Shown here in pieces: positions 8,895 through 55,128 of a stretch of 64,000 nt of DNA. This DNA is from Mobula hypostoma. Lineage: Eukaryota. The translations under genes and the position numbers were made by a program. The first letter of the stretch is position 1; the number at the start of each line of letters is the position of its first letter. The stretch lies in NCBI RefSeq assembly GCF_963921235.1, contig NC_086097.1, positions 72,542,001-72,606,000 of the forward strand, in the 5' to 3' direction. The notes under the pieces are model-generated. The model was not told where the DNA came from. It did not search any database and saw only the letters and a list, made by a program, of their open reading frames with translations.

Positions 8895-8908
8895 CTAATT
8901 CATCAACA

Positions 8909-9202
8909 TCAAACTTGCTGGTGAACGCAGCAGGCCAGGCAGCATCTCTAGGAAGAGGTACAGTTGACGTTTCAGGCGGAGACCCTTCGTCAGGACTAAC
9001 TGAAAGAAGAGCGAGTAAGAGATTTGAAAGTGGGAGGGGGAGGGGGAGATCCAAAATGATAGGAGAAGACAGGAGGGGAAGGGATGGAGCCAAGAGCTGG
9101 ACCTCTTCATAGAGATGCTGCCTGGCCTGCTGCGTTCACCAGCAACTGTTATGTGTGTTGCTTGAATTTCCAGCATCTGCAGATTTCCTCGTGTTTGCGT
9201 TT
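8909..9202. mobile_element. PLE 3'-end insertion with partial inversion and 14-bp TSD
   Basis: CTAATTCATCAACA at 8895-8908 and 9203-9216; 8909-9101 is antisense and 9102-9202 sense of the same terminal sequence as 10471-10870; hammerhead-like motif on the - strand at 8961-8998. Confidence 0.8.
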
Positions 9203-10160
9203 CTAATTCATCAACAGCTTCTTTTCTATGGTTAAGCTTACATATCTGACACATTTCTAGCACCAGACATGCATGAAATGTAATTATTACTCTTGTAAAT
9301 TTCCTTTTGGAGATGATATCAAGTTCACCCAGTAATGCTGGTTACTCAGGAACCTGGGACTTAAATTTTCAAGACTGACCAAATCTGCCTCAACGTAAGG
9401 GGAAGCCAGCCCTCTATTCATTTCAAACCCGCACTCGTGTAGCTGCTCTGTCCAAATCATTTGATCACACCCCAGGCCCCAAAGTCATTACCTGTATATT
9501 GGGTAACTGAAACTCTGATCTAAGCCACTCAGACTTGGTGTTGAATCAGAGACCACATTCATTTCATTAGATATTTTCAAACTGAAGACTGGAGAATGTA
9601 AGTGTTTTTTCAAAACTTGATTAACATCATATTTAATGGCTTTATTGATTATTATCAGATCTGATGTATTTTAAATCGCACATTATTTTTATTCAATAAT
9701 TTACAACTAATTAATTATTTTCAATTTCAAAAACTCATTCTTCTTGTTTTCTTCTGGAAGGGAATGGCACATAAGCATTGCTCCCTTCTGAAATCTGCAG
9801 CCTCTAGTCTTGACGTGATGCAGAGAGTGTAATCTGATCTTAAGTTTGTTTTCATGTGCAGTCTGGTGACCTTCTGAAAACTGCTTGTGTTAGTCATTGA
9901 TCAATCCATATCACTTCCCATCTGTCATTTAATGGAGAATTAATGTTTTCAATCTGAAGACTCCCCCGAGCCCCTTCCATAGCAGTAGTTCGGTGTCCTT
10001 GTTAAAGCAAGCCCCTAGAGAACAGTAACAGCAGAATAGGAAACAGTAAGATGTAAAATATGAACCAAACCATTGGTAAAAGACACTTTGGATATAAAGC
10101 AACATACATCAAAGTTGCTGGTGAACGCAGCAGGCCAGGCAGCATCTATAGGAAGAAGCG

Positions 10161-10198
10161 CAGTCGACGTTTCAGGCCGAGACCCTTCGTCAGGACTA
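10161..10198 (-). ncRNA. Minimal type-I hammerhead ribozyme motif (mirror copy)
   Basis: Reverse complement UAGUC-CUGACGA-AGGGUCUCGGCCU-GAAA-CGUC-GACUG, identical to the + strand copy at 10736. Confidence 0.75.
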
Positions 10199-10735
10199 AC
10201 TGAAGGAAGAGTGAGTAAGGGATTTGAAAGCTGGAGGGGGAGGGGGAGATGCAAAATGATAGGAGAAGACAGGAGGGGGAGGGATAGAGCCAAGAGCTGG
10301 ACAGGTGATAGGCAGAAGGGGGTACGAGAGGATCATGGGACAGGAGGTCCGGGAAGAAAGACGGGGGGGGGGTGACCCAGAGGATGGGCAAGAGGTATAT
10401 TCAGAGGGACAGAGGGAGAAAAAGGAGAGTGAGAGAAAGAATGTGTGCATTAAAAAGAGTAACAGATGGGGTTACTCTTTTTAATGCACACATTCTTTCT
10501 CTCACTCTCCTTTTTCTCCCTCTGTCCCTCTGAATATACCTCTTGCCCATCCTCTGGGTCACCCCCCCCCCGTCTTTCTTCCCGGACCTCCTGTCCCATG
10601 ATCCTCTCGTACCCCCTTCTGCCTATCACCTGTCCAGCTCTTGGCTCTATCCCTCCCCCTCCTGTCTTCTCCTATCATTTTGCATCTCCCCCTCCCCCTC
10701 CAGCTTTCAAATCCCTTACTCACTCTTCCTTCAGT

Positions 10736-10773
10736 TAGTCCTGACGAAGGGTCTCGGCCTGAAACGTCGACTG
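10736..10773 (+). ncRNA. Minimal type-I hammerhead ribozyme motif (PLE type)
   Basis: Stem I AGUC/GACU, core CUGACGA (10741-10747), short stem II, GAAA (10761-10764), palindromic ACGU mini stem III and GUC triplet; predicted cleavage after 10768. Confidence 0.8.
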
Positions 10774-11160
10774 CGCTTCTTCCTATAGATGCTGCCTGGC
10801 CTGCTGCGTTCACCAGCAACTTTGATGTATGTTGCTTGAATTTCCAGCATCTGCAGAATTCCTGTTGTTTGGATATAAAGCATGTACTTTTTTTTGGAAC
10901 AACAACATAGATTATTTTTCCAGTTAATCTGAATTTTCTAACTGTAATCAATGACCAATACTCAAGAAAAACTTCAAAACCATAAATAAGTAGATAATTT
11001 GAACAGAAATATTTCATATGGAGGCTGATGACAATAAATAATTATTTACCAGGAACAGATATTTAGTTGAAATTATTAAGAAATGTTGAGACTTATGATG
11101 TATGTTGGGTTAACATTAGTTAGAGATAAAAAGTTATTGCTAAAATTCTTATTTGGTTTA

Positions 11161-12237: not shown

Positions 12238-12366
12238 ACAAGCACAGGAAAATCTGCAGATGCTGGACAGGTCCTGGTGAAAGGTCTCAGCCTGAAATGT
12301 CGACTGTTTATTTCTTTCCATAGATGCTGCCTGACCTGCTGAGTTCCTCCAGCATTTTCCATGTGC
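12238..12366. mobile_element. Short rearranged PLE terminal fragment with 13-bp TSD
   Basis: TATTCTCAGTAAC at 12225-12237 and 12367-12379; the inverted extreme terminus (GGAAAATCTGCAGATGCTGGA) is joined to a sense degenerate hammerhead (CTGGTGA..GAAATGTCGAC, 12271-12306). Confidence 0.75.
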
Positions 12367-16692: not shown

Positions 16693-16954
16693 CCATTTAT
16701 TAAACTTGCATAAAATTCTTAATTAATAGTTGGTACTATAAGCTTTTTGTAAATCTATATTAACCACCACCACTCCATTTTCTTTATCCATCCTCTTGTC
16801 TATTTCATAGAGATAGTCAATGATGTTCATGTAGGGAATGCCCTTAAGAGGGAAGAACTGAAGAGATTTTCTAAAGCAGACACATATTGCTTATTTGTCT
16901 TTGTTTTGTACCTTGGCATTTATTATGTTTTGCACTTTGACATTATCTCTGCAG

Positions 16955-17121
16955 GTACAACAGAGCGGGTATGTCTGATCCAGGGAACAGTGGAAGCTCT
17001 GAATGCAGTTCACAGCTTCATTGCAGAGAAAATCCGAGAAATGCCTCAGAATGTGGCAAAGACAGAACCAGTTAGTATTCTACAGCCTCAGACCACAGTA
17101 AATCCAGATCGCATCAAACAA
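16955..17121 (+). CDS. NOVA1: NOVA1 coding exon (167 nt; C-terminal part of KH1 plus linker; equivalent to mammalian exon 3)
   Basis: (G)[55 protein letters not shown] matches NOVA1 as recalled; acceptor tctctgcag at 16954 (phase 1) and donor CAA/gtaagt at 17122 (phase 0). Confidence 0.97.
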
Positions 17122-19265
17122 GTAAGTTACCAATAATGTTTATTATTAGAATATTGTTTGAATTTGTATTAGCATACACAGATAGTGGTGGAAGGAAGAG
17201 GATGCTGACAAATCTACTCCTTACATAGCGAGTAAAACAATGCTAACTTTAAATGCAAGTCTTTTCAATCAAAAAGCGACTAAATTGAGATTGAGGTTAT
17301 CAGAAATTTAACTTTAAACCTATTTGTCTACAACCTATTTTGATGAGGTGATCAATTAATCATTCACTCAGGTAGCCCCTTCCATCTTCCCAAGCCCATG
17401 TTCATTATTTATGCGTAACTATAATTAATTTAGTTCAAGAAATGGAAGAAAGTTAGATATTGCTACCTTGTGCACAATTCTCTTGCTGATTGTCCTCAAT
17501 TTAACCCTTGATCTCTACGAGTGCATAAATTTCCATAGGTTTATTAATTGTGTTGATGAAACATATTGTTAAAGGAAGACTGTCTGCAATGGTTTTGTGT
17601 AAATAAATAGCAAATGGAAACACTTTTGAGCTGAGAAAAAGAAATACATTCTGATAGTTTACACTTATCTACTTTTCTAGTCAGTGACAATTGTGCAAAA
17701 TTACTACCTTTTCATATAAATCGGTTGTGCACTTCTTAGCATCATATTAGAAGATGAGTTTATCATAATTTTCTTCCTGTCCCTGTGAATTGAACCAACT
17801 ATTTTTCCAATTATGTCATTGTTACTTAATACAGTACAGTTTCAGATGCAATCATTCCTTTTGAAAATGATTACTATCTGAAATATTTTGTTCTATGCTG
17901 CAGTATCATTCATTTATGGTCTAGAATGTGCTACCGTGAGAATTCCCTTTGCAGCCTTTGACATCACTCATTATTCTGTAAAAGCTCTGTGCAATGTTAA
18001 AAAAAAACTGGCATTTGTAACACGATTATTTAAAACAAAAACATGTCAAGCAGTGTGCATATACGAGGAAAATTAGCAAAAAGTATACATTTTTTCAGTC
18101 TTCCATAATATATTGCATATCAAAGGCAACATTTTTGGGATCATGCTATTATTTGTTTTAAATAGGTACAAAATCACTGATAATTCATTAATAATCTTGA
18201 TTCAATTACTCTTCCTGTTGACTATGAAAAATCAGTGTGAAATCTTAGGCGCAAATCTTGAATATTACCAATTTACTGTAATGTGATTTGCTCCCATTCA
18301 GCCTCCATGAGAGGCAATTGCAAGAATTTAAAATCAAAATAATGAAGATTGTTTTTGAGATGAAGGTATTCACATCTGAGTTTTTGTCATGTTCAGCCAT
18401 TTGACGGGAACAAGAGACAATCCAAGTAAAACATCATTTATGGTTTCACATACATTGAAAATATAGATGTTCTGGCCACAGCAACCCAACAGGCCCACAA
18501 TGCACATGAAAAAGAAACAAGATGATTTCCAGAGGGAGGAATTAAATAATTTGCTGTGAATACTTAAGAGAATACAGTTGCTTTTGTAATGTGCAGGGCC
18601 TCTTCTGATGTCTCATGACTTCCTTCCCAGAGAAAACTGGAGGAGCCATGTTAGGTTGTATCCATATTGATTACCAACGCTGCTGGGAAGTTTGATTACA
18701 AACATGTACCCACATGTTAGCTTTAATGTTTGGGATCCCTATAAGTGGCTTTATTGTAATCTTGATCTAACAGTGGTTTGTACAAAAACATTCATATACT
18801 GTGAAGCAACTCTACTTTTCTGCCAGTTTGCATTCTAACAGCAGTGCTGAAAGCTTCACCTTCAATTTCTAGAAACTGAGAATTCAATGCTAACACTAGA
18901 TCTTGCCAAAGAAGGGGGCGAAGAATTTGACTTAAGTCATGTGTATTGTTCGAACAATTAACTATACTTTCACTGCTCTTTCAAAGTTCAGATTCATTAA
19001 AATTAATGGATTGCAATTTATTAATTGGAGCTCAGTTGTATTTAGTACAAGGGACCAAAAGCAAATTTATCCCTCATAATTATTTGTAGAAAATGTGTAA
19101 TCATTCAACTACTATGTAACTACAACTCCCTAAGCATTAAGATCCCATCCATTAAACCTGCCATAAGAGGCAATTCCACACAGTAAATTACATTTCTATA
19201 GAATATTGAACATAGAATAGTACAGCACAGTACAGGTCCTTCGGCCCACAATGTTGTGCCGACCC

Positions 19266-22175
19266 TCAAACCCTGCCTCCCATATAAGCCCTCACCTTAA
19301 ATTCCTCCATATACCTGTCTAGTAGTCTCTTAAACTTCACTAGTGTATCTGCCTCCACCACTGACTCAGGCAGTGCATTCCACGCACCAACCACTCTCTG
19401 AGTGAAAGACCTTCCTCTAATATCCCCCTTGAACTTCCCACCCCTTACCTTAAAGCCATGTCCTCTTGTATTGAGCAGTGGTGCCCTGGGGAAGAGGCGC
19501 TTGCTATCCACTCTATCTATTCCTCTTATTATCTTGTACACCTCTATCATGTCTCCTCTCATCCTCCTTCTCTCCAAAGAGTAAAACCCTAGCTCCCTTA
19601 ATCTCTGATCATAATGCATACTTTCTAAACCAGGCAGCATCCTGGCAAATCTCCTCTGTACCCTTTCCAATGCTTCCACATCCTTTCTATAGTGAGGTGA
19701 CCAGAACTGGACACAGTACTCCAAGTGTGGCCTAACCAGAGTTTTATAGAGCTGCATCATTACATCGCAACTCTTAAACTCTATCCCTTGACTTATGAAA
19801 GCTAACACCCCATAAGCTTTCTTAACTACCCTATCCACCTGTGAGGAAACTTTCAGGGATCTGTAGACATGTACCCCGAGATCCCTCTGCTCCTCCACAC
19901 TACCAAGTATCCTGCCATTTGCTTTGTACTCTGCCTTGGAGTTTGTCTTTCCAAAGTGTACCACCTCACACTTCTCTGGGTTGAACTCCACCTGCCACTT
20001 CTCAGCCCACTTCTGCATCCTATCAATGTCTCTCTGCAATCTTTGACAATCCTCTACACTATCTACAACACCACCAACCTTTGTGTCATCTGCAAACTTG
20101 CCAACCCACCCTTCTACCCTCACATCCAGGTCATTGATAAAAGTCACGAAAAGTAGAGGTTCCAGAACAGATCCTTGTGGGACACCACTAGTCACAATCC
20201 TCCAATCTGAATGTACTCCCTCCACAACCACCCTCTGCCTTCTGCAGGCAAGCCAATTCTGAATCCACCTGGCCAAACTTCCCTGGATCCCATGCCTTCT
20301 AACTTTCTGAATAAGCCTACTGTGTGGAACCTTGTCAAATGCCTTAATAAAATCCATATAGATCACATCCACTGCACTACCCTCATCTATATGCCTGGTC
20401 ACCTCCTCAAAGACTGCCCTTCACAAAGCCATGCTGACTGTCCCTGATCAGACCATGATTGTCTAAATGCCTATAGATCCTATCTCTAAGAATCTTTTCC
20501 AACAGCTTTGCCACCACGGACGTAAGGCTCACTGGTCTATAATTACCCAGATTATCCCTACTACCTTTTTTGAACAAGGGGACAACATTCGCCTCCCTCC
20601 AAGCCTCCGGTACCATTCGCGTGGACAACGAGGACATAAAGATCTTAGCCAGAGGCTCAGCAATCTCTTCTCTCGCCTCGTGGAGCAGCCTGGGGAATAT
20701 CCTGTCAGGCCCCAGGGACTTATCTGTCCTAATGTATTTTAACAACTCCAACACCTCCTCTCCCTTAATATCAACATGCTCCAGAACATAACCTCACTCA
20801 TATTGTCCTCACCGTCATCAAGTTCCCTCTCATTGGTGAATGCCGAAGTGAAGTATTCATTGAGGACCTCGCTCACTTCCACAGCCTCCAGGCACATCTT
20901 CCCACCTTTATCTCTAATCGGTCCTACCTTCACTCCTGTCATCCTTTTTTTCTTCACATAATTGAAGAATGCTTTGGGGTTTTCCTTTACCCTACTCGAC
21001 AATGCCTTCTCATGCTCCCTTCTTGCTCTTCTCAGCCCCTTCTTAAGCTCCTTTCTTGCTTCCCTATATTCCTCAATAGACCCATCTGATCCTTGCTTCC
21101 TAAACCTCATGTATGCTGCCTTCTTCCACCTGACTAGATCTTCCACCTCACTTGTCACCCATGGTTCCTTCACCCGACCATTCTTTATCTTCCTCACCAG
21201 GACAAATTTATCCCTAACATCCCGCAAGAGATCTCTAAACATCGACCACATGTCCATAGTACATTTCCCTGCAAAAACATCATCCCAATTCACACCCGCA
21301 AGATCTAGCCTTATAGCCTCATAATTTGCCTTTCCCCAATTAAAAATTTTCCTGTCCTCTCTGATTCTATCCCTTTCCATGATAATGCTAAAGGCCAGGG
21401 AGCAGTGGTCACTGTCCCCCAGATGCTCACCCACTGAGAGATCTGTGACATGACCCGGTTCATTAGCTAGTAGTAGATCTAGTATGGCATTCCCCCTGGT
21501 CGGCCTGTCCACATACTGTGACAGGAATCCGTCCTGGACACACTTAACAAACTCTGCCCCATCTAAACCCTTGGAACTAATCAGGTGCAAATCAATATTA
21601 GGGAAGTTAAAGTCACCCATGATAACAACCCTGTTATTTTTGCACCTTTCCAAAATCTGCCTCCCAATCTGCTCCTCTGTATCTCTGCTGCTACCAGGGG
21701 ACCTATAGAATACCCCCAATAGAGTAACTGCTCCCTTCCTGTTCCTGACTTCCACCCATATTGACTCAAAAGAGGATCCTGCTACATTACCCACCCTTTC
21801 TGTAGCTGTAATAGTATCCCTAACCAGTAATACCACCCCTCCTCCCCTTTTTCCGCCCTCTGTATCCCTTTTAAAGCACTGAAATCCAGGAATATTGAGA
21901 ATCCATTCCTGCCCTGGTGCCAGCCAAGTCTCTGTAATGGCCTCCACATCATAATTCCATGTATGTATCCAAGCTCTCAGTTCATCACCTTTGTTCCTGA
22001 TGCTTCTTGCATTGAGGTACACACATTTCAGCCCTTCTACCTTACTGTCTTTACACCATTTATTCTGCTTCTCTTTCCTCAAAGCCTCTCTGTATGCTAT
22101 ATCTGGCTTTACTCCATGCACTTCTTTCACTGCTGTATCACTCTGGGTCCCATCCCCCTCGCAAATTAGTTTAAA
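19266..22175 (-). pseudogene. CR1 ORF2 broken by two frameshifts
   Basis: Compared with the intact copy at 52109-55054, a 1-bp deletion near 20790 and an approximately 26-bp deletion near 20413 split ORF2 into the 463, 115 and 378 aa ORFs. Confidence 0.9.
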
Positions 22176-23090
22176 CCCTCCCGAACCATGCTAGCAAACC
22201 TACCTGCAAGGGTATTGCTCCCCCTCGAGTTCAGGTGCAACCCATCCAATCTGTACAGGTCCCACCTTCCCCAGAAGAGATCCCAATGATCTAAAAATCT
22301 AAAACCCTGCTCCTTGCACCAACTCCTCAGCCACGCATTCAACTGCCATCTCCTCTAATTCTTACCATCCCTGTCACGTAGCACTGGCAGCAATCCTGAG
22401 AACACCACCCTTGAGGTCCTGTTCTTCAGCCTTCTGCCTAGTTCCCGAAACTCACAATTCAGGACCTCATCCCTCTTCCTGCCTATGTCATTGGTCCCAC
22501 GTATCACGACTTCTGGTTGCTTTCCCTCTCATACCAGGATGTCGTGCACCCGGACCCTGGCACCCAGGAGGCAACAAACCATGCGGGTGGCCTTCTCATG
22601 TCCACAAAATCTCCTGTCTGCTCTCCTGACTATAGAGTCTCCAATGACGACAGCTCTCCTCTTCTCCGTCCCACCCTTCCGCACCACAGGGTTAGACTCA
22701 GTGCTGGAGGCCCTGCCACTGTGGCTCACACCTGGTCGGTCGTCCTCGCCAACAATATCCAGGATGGTAAACTTATTATTCAGGGGAATGGCTACATGGG
22801 TGCTCTGTACTACCTGTCTGCTCACCTTCACTTCCCCCCTCTGACTGTCACCCAGCGACCTGCTTCCAACAGCTTAGGTGTGACTATCTCCCTGTGGCTC
22901 TCATCTATGACTGCCTCATTCTCCCTTATGAGTCAAAGGTCATCCAGCTGCTGCTCCAGATTCCTTACACGGTCTTCCCGATCGCCCAGCCGTATGCACT
23001 TCTGGCAGATGTGACTCTGCGGGAGAGGGAAGTTCCCCCAAGACTGCCACATCTCACATGAGAGGCACATCGCCATCTCAAGAGACATTG
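22166..23090 (-). pseudogene. CR1 ORF1 (zinc finger/coiled coil plus SGNH esterase), disrupted
   Basis: MSLEMAMCLSCEMW..HICQKC..LEQQLDDL then an in-frame stop; RRAVVIGDSIVRRADRRFCG; ends ..HWDLFWGRWDLYRLDGLHLN..GLN*. Confidence 0.8.
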
Positions 23091-38597: not shown

Positions 38598-38735
38598 AAC
38601 ACACGAAATGCTGGAGGAACTTAGCAGGTCAGGCAGCATCTCTGGAAATGGATAAACAGTTGATGTTTCGAGCCAAACCCCTTCATTAGGACTCACTGTA
38701 TCTGTGTGTTTTTCAGCATCTGCAGTTTTCAAAAC
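38598..38735 (-). mobile_element. PLE terminal fragment with degenerate hammerhead (38657-38693)
   Basis: Reverse complement AGTC-CTAATGA-AGGGGTTTGGCTC-GAAA-CATC-AACTG followed by the shared GATGCTGCCTGACCTGCT..TTCCTCCAGCA block; a short sense CAGCATCTGCAG terminus follows. Confidence 0.75.
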
Positions 38736-39719: not shown

Positions 39720-39856
39720 TCCTCCAGTCCTGATGAAGGGTCTCGGCCCAAAATGTCGACCTACTCTTTTCCATAGATGCTGCCTGGCCTACTGAGTTCC
39801 TCCAGCATTTTGTTTGTGTTGCTTGGATTTCCAGTATCTGCAGATTTACTCTTGTT
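39720..39856 (+). mobile_element. PLE terminal fragment with near-intact hammerhead (39726-39760)
   Basis: AGTC-CTGATGA-A-GGGTCTCGGCCC-AAAA-TGTC-GAC (GAAA to AAAA and CG to TG, consistent with CpG decay) plus the shared 3' terminus. Confidence 0.8.
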
Positions 39857-40319
39857 AGGGAATAAGCGTTCATATGCTGATGAGATCTATGATCCCATTA
39901 ATTATAGTGGAAATTGCAGGTCCATGGAGAGAAAATTACAGTAAAATTAAGTTCCAATTTTAATTATTTATGATGGATATTTTTAATTTAAAAGTGTTTT
40001 TTGTCAACATTATCTCTTCTTTATTTAAATATATGTTTTTGAAATGCTGATCAGAAAGAGCTTTGTAAGCAGGCTTTGCCAACTCTCAGGAATTTTCAGT
40101 GGTTTCATGGCTGGGGCTTCTACTTCATTGCACCCTTTGAAGCTCTGTCCATCTAATGGTCCCACTACTCCAGTCATCTCGCTTGCATCAAGCACTGAGA
40201 ATAGTGAAAGGTCCGTGAAAATAAATCCAAGGCCTCTTCCACCAAGTAACTTTTTGCAAGCCACCAAAAGGTGCTGATTTATGTTATACAGATGAAAGCC
40301 AGCCACATACTTACAGTAC

Positions 40320-49364: not shown

Positions 49365-49781
49365 GGTCTAATCTTTATATATGATCACACCTGCGATCTA
49401 ATCTTTATATATGATCACACCTGCGATCTAATCTTTATATATGATCACACCTGAGATCTAATCTTTATATATGATCGCACCTGGAATCTAATCTTTATAT
49501 GTGATCGCACCTGGGATCTAATCTTTCTATGTGATCGCACCTGGGATCTAATCTTTATATGTGATCGCACCTGGGGTCTAATCTTTATATGTGATCGCAC
49601 CCGGGGTCTAATCTTTATATGTGACCGCACCTGGGATCTAATCTTTATACGTGATCACACCTGGGATCTAATCTTTATACGTGATCACACCTGGGATCTA
49701 ATCTTTATACGTGACCACACCTGGGATCTAATCTTTATACGTGATCACACCTGGGATCTAATCTTTATATGTGACAACACC
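49365..49781. repeat. 30-bp minisatellite, about 14 copies (GATCTAATCTTTATATGTGATCRCACCTGG)
   Basis: CTAATCTTT recurs every 30 bp from 49368 to 49758. Confidence 0.97.
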
Positions 49782-51190
49782 GAGAGATGCACAACCTGAC
49801 TCACTGCACATATGCACCCTCTCCCTTTGCCCACACAATCCCTCAGCACAGCAGTAGGTATTCTGCAGCTATTCTGTGGCTGCCATGGAGACGAGCTCTT
49901 TAAGCACCTGACTTGCCTCCATGCTTCATTGTGCAATGAAATGGCAGCTACAATCTCTAACAGCAGCTGCTGTTGGAAACCACACTGGTGTAGTTTTACC
50001 ATATGATTCAGTGAGTAAAACAGCCATGTGTTTATTTCTTTCTGTCTTTTTTTTCTTTCTTCCTTTCTTTTTGCAGCACAGTAATAAACCCTTCTGGCCT
50101 GATGAGCTCATGCCGCATTTTCATCTGGATTTTGTTTCCAATTATGCAAAGCTCTGCTTTGTGTACTGATAAAGGATGAACTCCAATTTCTGGGCCACTC
50201 TTCTTTATGCTATGCAATGAAGAACATACACAGTAAAAACTGTTTTTACTGCGGTTGTATTCTTATTGCTAAGTAATGCTTGCTGATGTGTGTTTCCTTT
50301 TTTGAAAGAAATGAACACTTTTTTAACTAGTCACCAAAAATTTCTATCTATCAACAACACAAATAAACTACTCCAGTCAGTGAAGTCACTATAAAGCAAA
50401 TAACTTACTGAATCTAATTTATTGTAATTCTGGACAATGTTAATGTTGTGCACAATGGCACAGACAGTATTGGTAGCAGAAATTCCTTTAACAGTAGATC
50501 ATTAACAATTTATATATATATATTTGAGTACTGGCATTATTTTCACAGGTTTATTCTAGCTTTATCAGCAGACTCTTATAGTAGCATTTAAGTTGCATTT
50601 TAAAATTAAATCCTAATTGTTGGAATAAGCAGCTGGATTAGGAATTTTGAGCAATCAGGCGATGAAACCCTCTTTTAAATGTAACAATCAGAAATTTAGT
50701 AATAATTTCAGTTTGGTTTGAAAGTACAACATTTGCCCAACAATGTTAATGTTACACAAGAGACTCTTCCTATCTTTTTTCGTCTCACCCTATCAATATC
50801 TTCCCCTGTTCATTATTCTCTCAGGTACTTCATGAGCTTCCCTTTTTAATTGCTTCTACACCATTTACCTCAAACCACATTGTGTGGTAGCAAGTATTCT
50901 TACGACTGTTAGACTCTTATCATTTTATAATGACAGTCAAGTAATTCCAGTTCCCTGTATATTCAATAAAAAATCTAAATCAGCTTACACGAAGCCGCAA
51001 ATATTTACACAATACGGGGTATAATTCTGTTACATTCCAGGAAGTTTTTAGTTTTTTGTGATAGTAGTCACCTTTGTGAATATAAACATACCTATTTTAT
51101 CATTGTTGAAAGGAAATCCACTGAGATTTTTGTTTCTATTTTTATTCCTTCAAGGGATGTGGATTTCTCAGGCTAAGCCAACATTTAATT

Positions 51191-51291
51191 CTTGAAGAAG
51201 GGTTTTGGCCTGAAATGTTGACTGTTTACTCTTTTCCATAGATGATACCTGGCCTGCTGAGTTCCTCCAGCATCTTATGTGTGTTGCTCAT
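51191..51291 (+). mobile_element. PLE terminal fragment with degenerate hammerhead and 9-bp TSD
   Basis: CATTTAATT at 51182-51190 and 51292-51300; TTGAAGA-A-GGGTTTTGGCCT-GAAA-TGTT-GACTG plus the shared terminus. Confidence 0.75.
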
Positions 51292-51992: not shown

Positions 51993-54900
51993 TAGATTTT
52001 AGATCATTGGCATCTCTTCTGCGGAAGGTGGGACCTGTACAGATTGGATGGGTTGCACCTGAACTCGAGAGGGAGCAATATCCTTGCAGGTAGGTTTGCT
52101 AGCATGGTTTGGGAGGGTTTAAACTAATTTGCGAGAGGGATGGGACCCAGAGCGATAGAGCAGTGAAAGAAGTGCATGGAGTAAAGGCAGATCTAACATA
52201 CAGAGAGGCTTTGAGGAAAGAGAAGCAGAATAAATGGTGTAAAGACAGTAAGGCAGAAGGGCTGAAATGTGTGTACCTCAATGCAAGAAGCATCAGGAAC
52301 AAAGGTGATGAACTGAGAGCTTGGATACATACATGGAATTATGATGTGGAGGCCATTACAGAGACTTGGCTGGCACCAGGGCAGGAATGGATTCTCAATA
52401 TTCCTGGATTTCAGTGCTTTAAAAGGGATAGAGAGGGAGGAAAAAGGGGAGGAGGGGTGGCATTACTGGTCAGGGATACTATTACAGCTACAGAAAGGGT
52501 GGGTAATGTAGCAGGATCCTCTTTTGAGTCAATATGGGTGGAAGTCAGGAACTGGAAGGGAGCAGTTACTCCACTGGGGGTATTCTATAGGCCCCCTGGT
52601 AGCAGCAAAGATACAGAGGAGCAGATTGGGAGGCAGATTTTGGAAAGGTGCAAAAATAACAGGGTTGTTATCATGGGTGACTTTAACTTCCCTAATATTG
52701 ATTGGCACCTGATTAGTTCCAAGGGTTTAGATGGGGCAGAATTTGTTAAGTGTGTCCAGGATGGATTCCTGTCACAGTATGTGGACAGGCCGACCAGGGG
52801 GACTGCCATACTAGATCTAGTACTAGGTAATGAACTGGGTCAGGTCACAGATCTCTCAGTGGGTGAGCATCTGGGGGACAGTGATCACCGCTCCCTGGCC
52901 TTTATAATTATCTTGGAAAAGGATAGAATCAAAGAGGACAGGAAAATTTTTAATTGGGGAAAGGCAAATTATGAGGCTATAAGGCTAGAACTTGCGGGTG
53001 TGAATTGGGATGATGTTTTTGCAGGGAAATGTACTATGGACATGTGGTCGATGTTTAGAGATCTCTTGCGGGATGTAAGGGATAAATTTGTCCCGGTGAG
53101 GAAGATAAAGAATGGTAGGGTGAAGGAACCATGGGTGACAAGTGAGGTGGAAAATTTAGTCAGGAGGAAGAAGGCAGCATACATGTGGTTTAGGAAGCAA
53201 GGATCCGATGGGTCTACTGAGGAATATAGGGAAGCAAGAAAGGAGCTTAAGAAGGAGCTGAGAAGAGCAAGAAGGGGGCATGAGAAGGCCTTGGCGAGTA
53301 GGGTAAAGGAAAACCCCAAGGCATTCTTCAATTATGTGAAGAAAAAAAGGATGACAGGAGTGAAGGTAGGACCGATTAGAGATAAAGGTGGGAAGATGTG
53401 CCTGGAGGCTGTGGAAGTGAGCGAGGTCCTCAATGAATATTTCTCTTCGGTATTCATCAATGAGAGGGAACTTGATGATGGTGAGGACAATATGAGTGAG
53501 GTTGATGTTCTGGAGCATGTTGATATTAAGGGAGAGGAGGTGTTGAAGTTGTTAAAATACATTAGGACAGATAAGTCCCTGGGGCCTGACGGAATATTCC
53601 CCCGGCTGCTCCATGAGGCGAGAGAAGAGATTGCTGAGCCTCTGGCTAGGATCTTTATGTCCTCGTTGTCCACGGGAATGGTACCGGAGGATTGGAGGGA
53701 GGCGAATGTTGTTCCCTTGTTCAAAAAAGGTAGTAGGGATAGTCTGGGTAATTATAGACCAGTGAGCCTTACGTCTGTGGTGGCAAAGCTGTTGGAAAAG
53801 ATTCTTAGAGATAGGATCTATAGGCATTTGGAGAATCATGGTCTGATCAGGGACAGTCAGCATGGCTTTGTGAAGGGTAGATCGTGTCTAACAAGCCTGA
53901 TAGAGTTCTTTGAGGAGGTGACCAGGCATATAGATGAGGGTAGTGCAGTGGATGTGATCTATATGGATTTTAGTAAGGCATTTGACAAGGTTCCACACAG
54001 TAGGCTTATTCAGAAAGTTAGAAGGCACGGGATCCAGGGAAGTTTGGCCAGGTGGATTCAGAATTGGCTTGCCTGCAGAAGGCAGAGGGTGGTGGTGGAG
54101 GGAGTACATTTAGATTGGAGGATTGTGACTAGTGGTGTCCTACAAGGATCTGTTCTGGGACCTCGACTTTTCGTGATTTTTATTAACGACCTGGATGTTG
54201 GGGTAGAAGGGTGGGTTGGCAAGTTTGCAGATGACACAAAGGTTGGTGGTGTTGTAGATAGTGTAGAGGATTGTCAAAGATTGCAGAGAGACATTGATAG
54301 GATGCAGAAGTGGGCTGAGAAGTGGCAGATGGAGTTCAACCCGGAGAAGTGTGAGGTGGTACACTTTGGAAGGACAAACTCCAAGGCAGAGTACAAAGTA
54401 AATGGCAGGATACTTGGTAGTGTGGAGGAGCAGAGGGATCTCGGGGTACATGTCCACAGATCCCTAAAAGTTGCCTCACAGGTGGATAGGGTAGTTAAGA
54501 AAGCTTATGGGGTGTTAGCTTTCATAAGTCGAGGGATAGAGTTTAAGAGTCGCGATGTAATGATGCAGCTGTATAAAACTCTGGTAAGGCCACACTTGGA
54601 GTATTGTGTCCAGTTCTGGTCACCTCACTATAGGAAGGATGTGGAAGCATTGGAAAGGGTACAGAGGAGATTTGCCAGGATGCTGCCTGGTTTAGAAAGT
54701 ATGCATTATGATCAGAGATTAAGGGAGCTAGGGCTTTACTCTTTGGAGAGAAGGAGGATGAGAGGAGACATGATAGAGGTGTACAAAATAATAAGAGGAA
54801 TAGATAGAGTGGATAGCCAGCGCCTCTTCCCCAGGGCACCACTGCTCAATACAAGAGGACATGGCTTTAAGGTAAGGGGTGGGAAGTTCAAGGGGGATAT

Positions 54901-55128
54901 TAGAGGAAGGTTTTTTACTCAGAGAGTGGTTGGTGCGTGGAATGCACTGCCTGAGTCAGTGGTGGAGGCAGATACACTAGTGAAGTTTAAGAGACTACTA
55001 GACAGGTATATGGAGGAATCTAAGGTGGGGGCTTATATGGGAGGCAGGGTTTGAGGGTCGGCACAACATTGTGGGCCGAAGGGCCTGTACTGTGCTGTAC
55101 TATTCTATGTTCTATGTTCTATGTTCTA
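51993..55128 (+). mobile_element. 5'-truncated young CR1 LINE with uninterrupted ORF2
   Basis: Starts in the ORF1 C-terminus (HWHLFCGRWDLYRLDGLHLN..GLN*) and ends in (TTCTATG)n; CTATTT at both junctions (51987-51992 and 55126-55131). Confidence 0.97.
52109..55054 (+). CDS. CR1 ORF2: APE endonuclease plus reverse transcriptase (981-codon open frame; true start not AUG-defined)
   Basis: YLNARS, ITETW, MGDFN, LDL and SDH endonuclease motifs; YRPVSLTS, QHGF, YMDFSKAFD, QGSVLGP and FADD RT motifs; no stops. Confidence 0.92.
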   Translation: MGGFKLICERDGTQSDRAVKEVHGVKADLTYREALRKEKQNKWCKDSKAEGLKCVYLNARSIRNKGDELRAWIHTWNYDVEAITETWLAPGQEWILNIPGFQCFKRDREGGKRGGGVALLVRDTITATERVGNVAGSSFESIWVEVRNWKGAVTPLGVFYRPPGSSKDTEEQIGRQILERCKNNRVVIMGDFNFPNIDWHLISSKGLDGAEFVKCVQDGFLSQYVDRPTRGTAILDLVLGNELGQVTDLSVGEHLGDSDHRSLAFIIILEKDRIKEDRKIFNWGKANYEAIRLELAGVNWDDVFAGKCTMDMWSMFRDLLRDVRDKFVPVRKIKNGRVKEPWVTSEVENLVRRKKAAYMWFRKQGSDGSTEEYREARKELKKELRRARRGHEKALASRVKENPKAFFNYVKKKRMTGVKVGPIRDKGGKMCLEAVEVSEVLNEYFSSVFINERELDDGEDNMSEVDVLEHVDIKGEEVLKLLKYIRTDKSLGPDGIFPRLLHEAREEIAEPLARIFMSSLSTGMVPEDWREANVVPLFKKGSRDSLGNYRPVSLTSVVAKLLEKILRDRIYRHLENHGLIRDSQHGFVKGRSCLTSLIEFFEEVTRHIDEGSAVDVIYMDFSKAFDKVPHSRLIQKVRRHGIQGSLARWIQNWLACRRQRVVVEGVHLDWRIVTSGVLQGSVLGPRLFVIFINDLDVGVEGWVGKFADDTKVGGVVDSVEDCQRLQRDIDRMQKWAEKWQMEFNPEKCEVVHFGRTNSKAEYKVNGRILGSVEEQRDLGVHVHRSLKVASQVDRVVKKAYGVLAFISRGIEFKSRDVMMQLYKTLVRPHLEYCVQFWSPHYRKDVEALERVQRRFARMLPGLESMHYDQRLRELGLYSLERRRMRGDMIEVYKIIRGIDRVDSQRLFPRAPLLNTRGHGFKVRGGKFKGDIRGRFFTQRVVGAWNALPESVVEADTLVKFKRLLDRYMEESKVGAYMGGRV

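Follow-up and report, generated by a model that had tools for sequence, protein, structure and literature searches.

The window studied here, by which we mean the whole 64,000-nucleotide stretch of DNA that was analysed, carries several short inserts with hammerhead ribozyme (HHR) motifs inside the introns of a host gene. This raises the question of what such units are. One possibility is that they are the ends of an autonomous retrotransposon. Alternatively, as a first-pass annotation of this DNA proposed, they may form a family of their own, with sense copies that could cut the host transcript. We consider it very probable that the units are the 5'-truncated, often head-to-head ends of a young and abundant Penelope-like retrotransposon that carries a known minimal hammerhead ribozyme (min-HHR) in its pseudo-LTR (pLTR), and that lone intronic copies are likely inert. 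The hammerhead class is already known and the locus itself is ordinary; what the family offers is the statistical power of about 45,000 identical intact motifs for asking what hammerheads of Penelope-like elements (PLEs) do.

Hammerhead motifs in the introns of NOVA1

The location inside NOVA1 introns, claimed in the annotation, is supported by exon matches on the + strand. A 58-aa exon peptide matched Nova-1 (PDB 2ANN, E=6e-31), exons 1-2 were placed upstream of the window at a distance of about 178-180 kb, and the final coding exon lies about 82.8 kb from the window start. The features that matter to the argument are listed below, with signed positions given relative to the predicted cut.

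8906..9197, both strands: second head-to-head insertion, with a - arm at 8906-9102 and a + arm at 9104-9197
10087..10101 and 10868-10882, + strand: 15-nt direct repeat (target-site duplication, TSD), read from sequence, which overlaps the element ends by microhomology
10097..10472, - strand: inverted 5'-truncated arm without tail, -307 to +69, head to head with the + arm
10162..10197, - strand: hammerhead identical to that at 10737..10772, by sequence comparison, carried on the inverted arm of that insertion
10471..10870, + strand: 5'-truncated 3' pLTR of a Penelope-like element with a tail of about 32 nt, -298 to +101
10737..10772, + strand: intact minimal type-I hammerhead motif, with the predicted cut between 10768 and 10769
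12244..12365, + strand: older copy that starts at the motif at 12270 (core CUGGUGA, CG changed to TG), with an inverted tail fragment at 12244-12267
16954..17121, + strand: NOVA1 coding exon (GTTERV...DRIKQ), boundaries approximate, which fixes the host strand
38598..38693, - strand: older antisense copy (core CUAAUGA, CG changed to CA, stem I pair broken)
39726..39865, + strand: older sense copy (G12 changed to A, giving AAAA; CG changed to TG)
51188..51288, + strand: older sense copy (C3 changed to U, giving UUGAAGA; CG changed to TG)

The motif at 10737-10772 (+) reads AGTC CTGACGA A GGGTCTCGGCCT GAAA CG TC^GACT, and 10162-10197 (-) is an identical copy of it, so that the intact motifs reported near 10736 (+) and 10161 (-) were both found. 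Its helices are stem I (AGUC/GACU) and stem II (GGGU/GCCU with a CUCG loop), set among the boxes CUGACGA, an extra A, GAAA and the palindromic ACGU. The motif thereby combines the features of a minimal type-I hammerhead, namely the CUGANGA and GAAA..UH boxes, helices I and II, an extra nucleotide after A9 and palindromic positions 15.2-16.2. Passages of Cervera and de la Pena (2014, PMC4209133) describe min-HHRs with the same palindromic ACGU and the same extra nucleotide after A9 in the pLTRs of metazoan Penelope-like elements. Together with the pLTR context established below, this match supports the proposal that the motif is a Penelope-type minimal hammerhead with a palindromic ACGU stem III.

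The 3.48-Gb genome contains 45,139 exact matches to a 34-mer of the motif (22,524 + 22,615), with none in a reversed-pattern control, and a family-independent hammerhead descriptor gave no match on the reversed sequence of 1.63 Mb. Given that both reversed controls were empty against 45,139 real matches, the motif is not a product of chance. A search for stem covariation within the one dominant young family of this genome found single-sided variants only (G-C/G-U and U-G/U-A) and no compensatory double-sided changes, and hence it is the match to the published motif that carries the assignment of the hammerhead structure. An Rfam scan of the window returned no hammerhead match at E values up to 5; its miRNA-precursor matches at 10386-10548 are artefacts of a perfect inverted repeat.

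Homologues were present at all five further sites named in the annotation. The decay ascribed to them was seen in the copies at 12270, 39726, 51188 and 38658 but not in the one at 8962 (-), which keeps 11 of 11 core positions and the CG palindrome, with two changes, one in stem II and one in stem I. Since the core of the antisense copy at 38658 is itself changed, decay is not limited to the sense strand. The mutated sense copies at 12270, 39726 and 51188 are older and diverged, with 79-82% identity to the young copy.

Both young insertions in the window (10097-10870 and 8906-9197) are bounded by TSDs. The first consists of two arms, 10097-10472 (-) and 10471-10870 (+), joined by a 367-nt perfect inverted repeat; an assembly artefact was ruled out as its source by the TSD, the unequal arm ends and the many analogues of this arrangement. 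In the second, the - arm holds the core-intact hammerhead at 8962-8997, the + arm begins 7 nt past the cut and bears a tail, and a 14-nt direct repeat lies around the whole (8895-8908 and 9203-9216).

The window contains other repeats as well. Two LINE copies, which we take to be CR1-like, lie about 30 kb apart in opposite orientation (52103-55054 on the + strand and 19198-22296 on the - strand) and are 96-97% identical, and the former has an uninterrupted 983-codon endonuclease/RT frame. A 30-nt minisatellite of 13.8 copies (94% matches) occupies 49367-49781.

The source element and the 5' ends of its copies

In loci that match window positions 10471-10880, a reading frame lies upstream and terminates about 295 nt short of the motif, and a protein search found element frames of up to 1043-1054 codons. 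The full layout of pLTR(HHR), ORF and pLTR(HHR), with hammerheads about 3.5 kb apart, was present in 4 of the 11 long-frame loci examined (L053-L056), where direct pseudo-LTRs derived from a partial tandem flank the ORF. The + arm in the window (10471-10870) is about 98% (96-99%) identical to the pLTRs of these full-length copies. The 1043-codon ORF matched RVT_1 at residues 534-696 (E=3e-5) and, at its C terminus, GIY-YIG at 946-1020 (E=1e-3), both scores falling below the Pfam cut-offs; its first Atlas matches, at 0.97, were to RT/GIY-YIG clusters. Translations of L053 and L054 contain a CX4CX2C linker (CKRNKCYTC) between RT and EN, and the first consistent Met of the ORF lies about 138 nt past the cut. 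The exact k-mer counts obtained for the element, 10,739 upstream and 13,356 downstream, are subfamily-specific and therefore unusable as a coverage profile.

We characterized insertion structure in 73 young copies, defined by an identity of at least 88% and a match reaching +55, from 1.63 Mb of contiguous sequence. A back-to-back inverted partner accompanied 40 of the 73. Their 3' ends fell into two classes, one near +68 and the other near +101, some 32 nt apart, and their 5' ends were heterogeneous, ranging from -2,968 to +43. Inverted 5'-truncated copies and a tail are published hallmarks of PLE insertions, according to passages of PMC8557442, PMC3846280 and PMC11167929. NOVA1 itself holds a near full-length antisense copy of the element in intron 2, about 162-166 kb upstream of the window, whose 5' end is at -2,968; its head-to-head partner is a sense arm of 600 nt that carries an exact, intact hammerhead.

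The annotation had also claimed that several inserts begin at or near the motif, an observation that holds in the window and generalizes to other samples. Of the 73 young copies, 30 have their start in the interval from -55 to -10 and one starts at the cut; the interval from -129 to -56 contains no start. In a second sample (n=30, picked by downstream pattern), 18 have their start in the interval from -72 to -8; neither the interval from -257 to -73 nor the cut itself has any. Pooling gave 181 distinct copies with 60 starts in -75..-8, as opposed to 3 in an upstream stretch of the same length and another 3 in -7..+3, a comparison made in a set that is not unbiased and with a start window set after looking. 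Within this pooled set, 22 of the 60 starts cluster in -37..-29; the most frequent position, with 7 starts, is -32, where helix I begins. Genome-wide, two arms meet head to head within 14 nt at the ribozyme edge at 1,242 sites, and 12 of the first 50 listed have one and the same junction.

Two simple accounts of these ends can be set aside. Truncation determined by length is rejected, as 5' ends are independent of the 3' end: the median is -30 in tail-bearing copies (n=27) and -32 in tail-less ones (n=21; p=0.31), and a 32-nt shift is rejected at p=8e-7. Inserts defined by cleavage are rejected too, with only 1/73 and 0/30 starting at the cut. With 5' ends concentrated at the ribozyme edge and almost absent from the cut for either class of 3' end, the copies likely derive from uncut RNA, and we conclude that the inserts were likely not made from ribozyme-cut RNA.

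What places the ends at the ribozyme edge can be read in more than one way. It is quite possible that the element's RNA begins there. It is also quite conceivable that reverse transcriptase stops and folds back at local hairpins; other causes appear rather unlikely. Positions -36 and -32 agree with initiator words, for which the consensus is YYANWYY. We put forward, as a more tentative elaboration, that the helix I strand could be a transcription start, that the short copies could be run-off cDNAs of capped, uncut 5' pLTR transcripts, and that the 1,242 junctions could be self-primed products. An internal promoter within the pLTR is described for D. virilis Penelope in passages of PMC2377424. 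In the portions of papers that it covered, a literature search turned up no description of a 5'-end pile-up at a PLE ribozyme edge.

If the transcription-start reading is true, the pile-up would provide in-vivo evidence that the template of Penelope retrotransposition is not set by hammerhead cleavage, and the genome would be a fossil map of the element's RNA, with roughly half of the young copies ending at the 5' edge of the ribozyme. More generally, a pile-up of 5' ends that is absent at the cut lets the little-understood copying cycle of PLEs be read from genome sequence, and it agrees with the results of one in-vitro study.

Just upstream of helix I, positions 10712-10735 (+) hold a branch-point-like word, a pyrimidine tract and CAG, and some older copies have TACTAAC in the same place. 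These signals are reminiscent of D. virilis Penelope, where the end of an intron overlaps helix I, and sense copies could use them as a cryptic splice acceptor. A D. virilis-like intron ending at the ribozyme was rejected as the origin of the short copies, since solo short copies abut the TSD directly, with no shared upstream exon. Alignment of 4 of 22 RNA runs yielded neither start nor end sites, and joints that landed at the motif start were not accepted as splicing, the intervening sequence being undefined.

The abundance of short copies brings us to the proposal, made in the annotation, that these ORF-less units of 100-400 bp could be a SINE- or retrozyme-like family. Such a family would be non-autonomous, with its own transcription and amplification, and mobilized in trans by the Penelope protein. 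Short units that start near the ribozyme edge do make up about 40-60% of young copies (30/73, and 18/30 in the second sample), and pLTR-derived retrozymes exist in vertebrates, as reported in part of Li et al. (2026, bioRxiv 10.64898/2026.07.22.740005). One downstream haplotype was also commoner in short copies (10/41 versus 2/49, p=0.01, a post hoc choice), a hint that certain sources may yield short copies for the most part. However, the short copies have no fixed 5' end, their 60 starts being spread over 68 nt, and all common diagnostic positions are shared between short units and long copies, with no position significantly different between 41 short and 49 long ones. Nor did we find the tandem arrays of a retrozyme: the window has none bearing an HHR, same-strand neighbours within 1 kb numbered 3 among the 73 young copies, and 0 of 100 exact copies listed had a same-strand exact neighbour within 1 kb, as against 7 head-to-head pairs. 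The short copies also end at +68 or +101, before the ORF start, which the Anolis PLE needs in its template RNA according to passages of PMC11167929. Rfam gave no tRNA, 5S or 7SL match in the window. With about 98% identity to the 3' pLTR, varied 5' ends, shared diagnostics and no tandems among the copies sampled, the units do not bear out a separate family, an origin that we regard as very unlikely, and we continue to treat them as truncated ends of the PLE.

Strand and activity of intronic copies

The annotation suggested that sense copies in introns could cut host pre-mRNA unless a mutation or base pairing prevents it, and the idea tested here is that selection removes those that are neither mutated nor masked by an inverted partner. 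The window fits this idea at face value: core mutations in its unpaired sense copies, as claimed, are present in 3 of 3 lone sense copies, and the sole intact sense copy is fully paired in the 367-bp hairpin. However, the mutated sense copies are old, an old antisense copy is equally decayed, and an inverted partner is an ordinary insertion product of the family.

We therefore compared strands in 1.46 Mb of gene bodies, comprising 261 kb of NOVA1 introns and 400 kb from each of three large genes that were oriented solely by many same-strand CUB exon matches and are presumably CSMD genes. Descriptor-intact ribozymes numbered 20 sense and 16 antisense (p=0.62; sense share 95% CI 0.38-0.72). Exact copies numbered 15 sense and 13 antisense, a density of 19 per Mb versus 13 per Mb genome-wide. 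There were 388 profile matches in the sampled genes, of which 247 span the ribozyme (119 sense, 128 antisense); cores were intact in 36/119 sense and 36/128 antisense matches (p=0.78), and the numbers of core changes were equal (p=0.47). Equal decay on both strands had been set beforehand as the refuting test of selection, and decay came out equal across the four genes.

We also asked how many intact copies lack an inverted partner. With near-identical partners sought within 5 kb, the unpaired ones made up 11 of 20 on the sense strand versus 7 of 16 on the antisense strand. Across eight distance and mismatch settings for partners, none gave a significant difference, unpaired intact sense copies were common in all, and unpaired sense copies equalled or exceeded unpaired antisense ones in 7 of 8. 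One loose pairing rule did give 3/28 unpaired intact sense copies versus 7/24 antisense, the single outcome that points towards the selection idea, but at about one homologue per 4 kb this rule counts chance neighbours as partners.

In this sample of 36 intact copies from four genes, strong depletion of sense copies is excluded; a mild depletion may be compatible with it, and young copies might await purging. Purging of host-cutting sense copies thus seems to us barely credible, and the result of this first strand test is that introns tolerate hammerhead copies on both strands. As a separate observation, CUB-domain exons that are almost identical to one another lie densely arrayed on the - strand at G000:C64:52.71-52.97 Mb, which suggests a recent tandem domain expansion.

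Folding predictions bear on whether lone copies are active. In the motif, helix III would consist of one A-U pair around a loop of 2 nt. For helices I and II the predicted probability is at most 0.01 with natural flanks versus 0.65-0.95 for the bare 36-mer, in predictions that ignore co-transcriptional folding and proteins; the low value with flanks arises because hairpins at -47..-17 and -15..+1 compete. In passages of PMC4209133, min-HHRs showed no monomer cleavage and low dimer cleavage in vitro. These predictions are consistent with single intronic copies being likely inert, harmless passengers. At 10763-10770 a palindrome, GUCGAC, spans the cut site; its predicted intermolecular duplex (-10.3 kcal/mol, versus -3.1 kcal/mol for the ACGU helix III dimer) may compete with an active dimer.

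Taken together, these observations would fit the following course of events for the preferred PLE origin. The element's RT/GIY-YIG protein would nick the target, and cDNA would begin at one of two internal sites, leaving the tail. Synthesis would usually stop early, and a second, inverted arm would often be made by fold-back or template switch. The template would mostly be uncut RNA, with the ribozyme cutting only as a dimer or with element protein, inside the element's own RNA; a lone intronic copy would be predicted to misfold.

Comparison with known hammerheads, PLEs and retrozymes

The min-HHRs of PMC4209133 differ from ours in detail, with a helix II of 7-8 bp in the Schistosoma examples versus 4 bp here, and with C at position 11.1, which is often U (G-U) here. 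The same source gives about 4,000 motifs in coelacanth and about 9,000 in Xenopus, whereas here there is a homogeneous family with 45,139 exact copies.

Among EN+ PLEs, the Neptune/Nematis type, as described in passages of Craig et al. (2021, PMC8557442), likewise has a single ORF in which RT precedes a C-terminal GIY-YIG. It shares a Zn-finger linker (CX4CX2C here; CX2-5CxxC in Neptune, and present also in Nematis), as well as partial tandems, an inverted 5'-truncated copy, a 30-40 nt tail at one end and an HHR in the pLTR. The linker of our element is of the Neptune/Nematis type, and by this feature the element is a candidate member of that group. Those passages do not mention 5' ends concentrating at the edge of the ribozyme, as they do here.

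The Poseidon element of Anolis carolinensis (PAc), as covered in passages of Frangieh et al. (2024, PMC11167929), likewise has two RT start sites downstream of the HHR that give rise to a tail, a feature that in our case is read from genome sequence. The PAc ORF starts inside the HHR, unlike ours, with its first consistent Met well past the cut. For PAc, uncut RNA is the main substrate, HHR cleavage is dispensable for insertion, and the HHR cut only with the PLE protein. Finally, the non-LTR retrozymes of Li et al. (2026), to judge from the same part of that preprint, likewise have type I HHRs, derive from pLTRs and lack ORFs. They are defined by tandem arrays with an HHR per unit, whereas the units described here are solo or head-to-head, variable in length and continuous with ORF-bearing copies.
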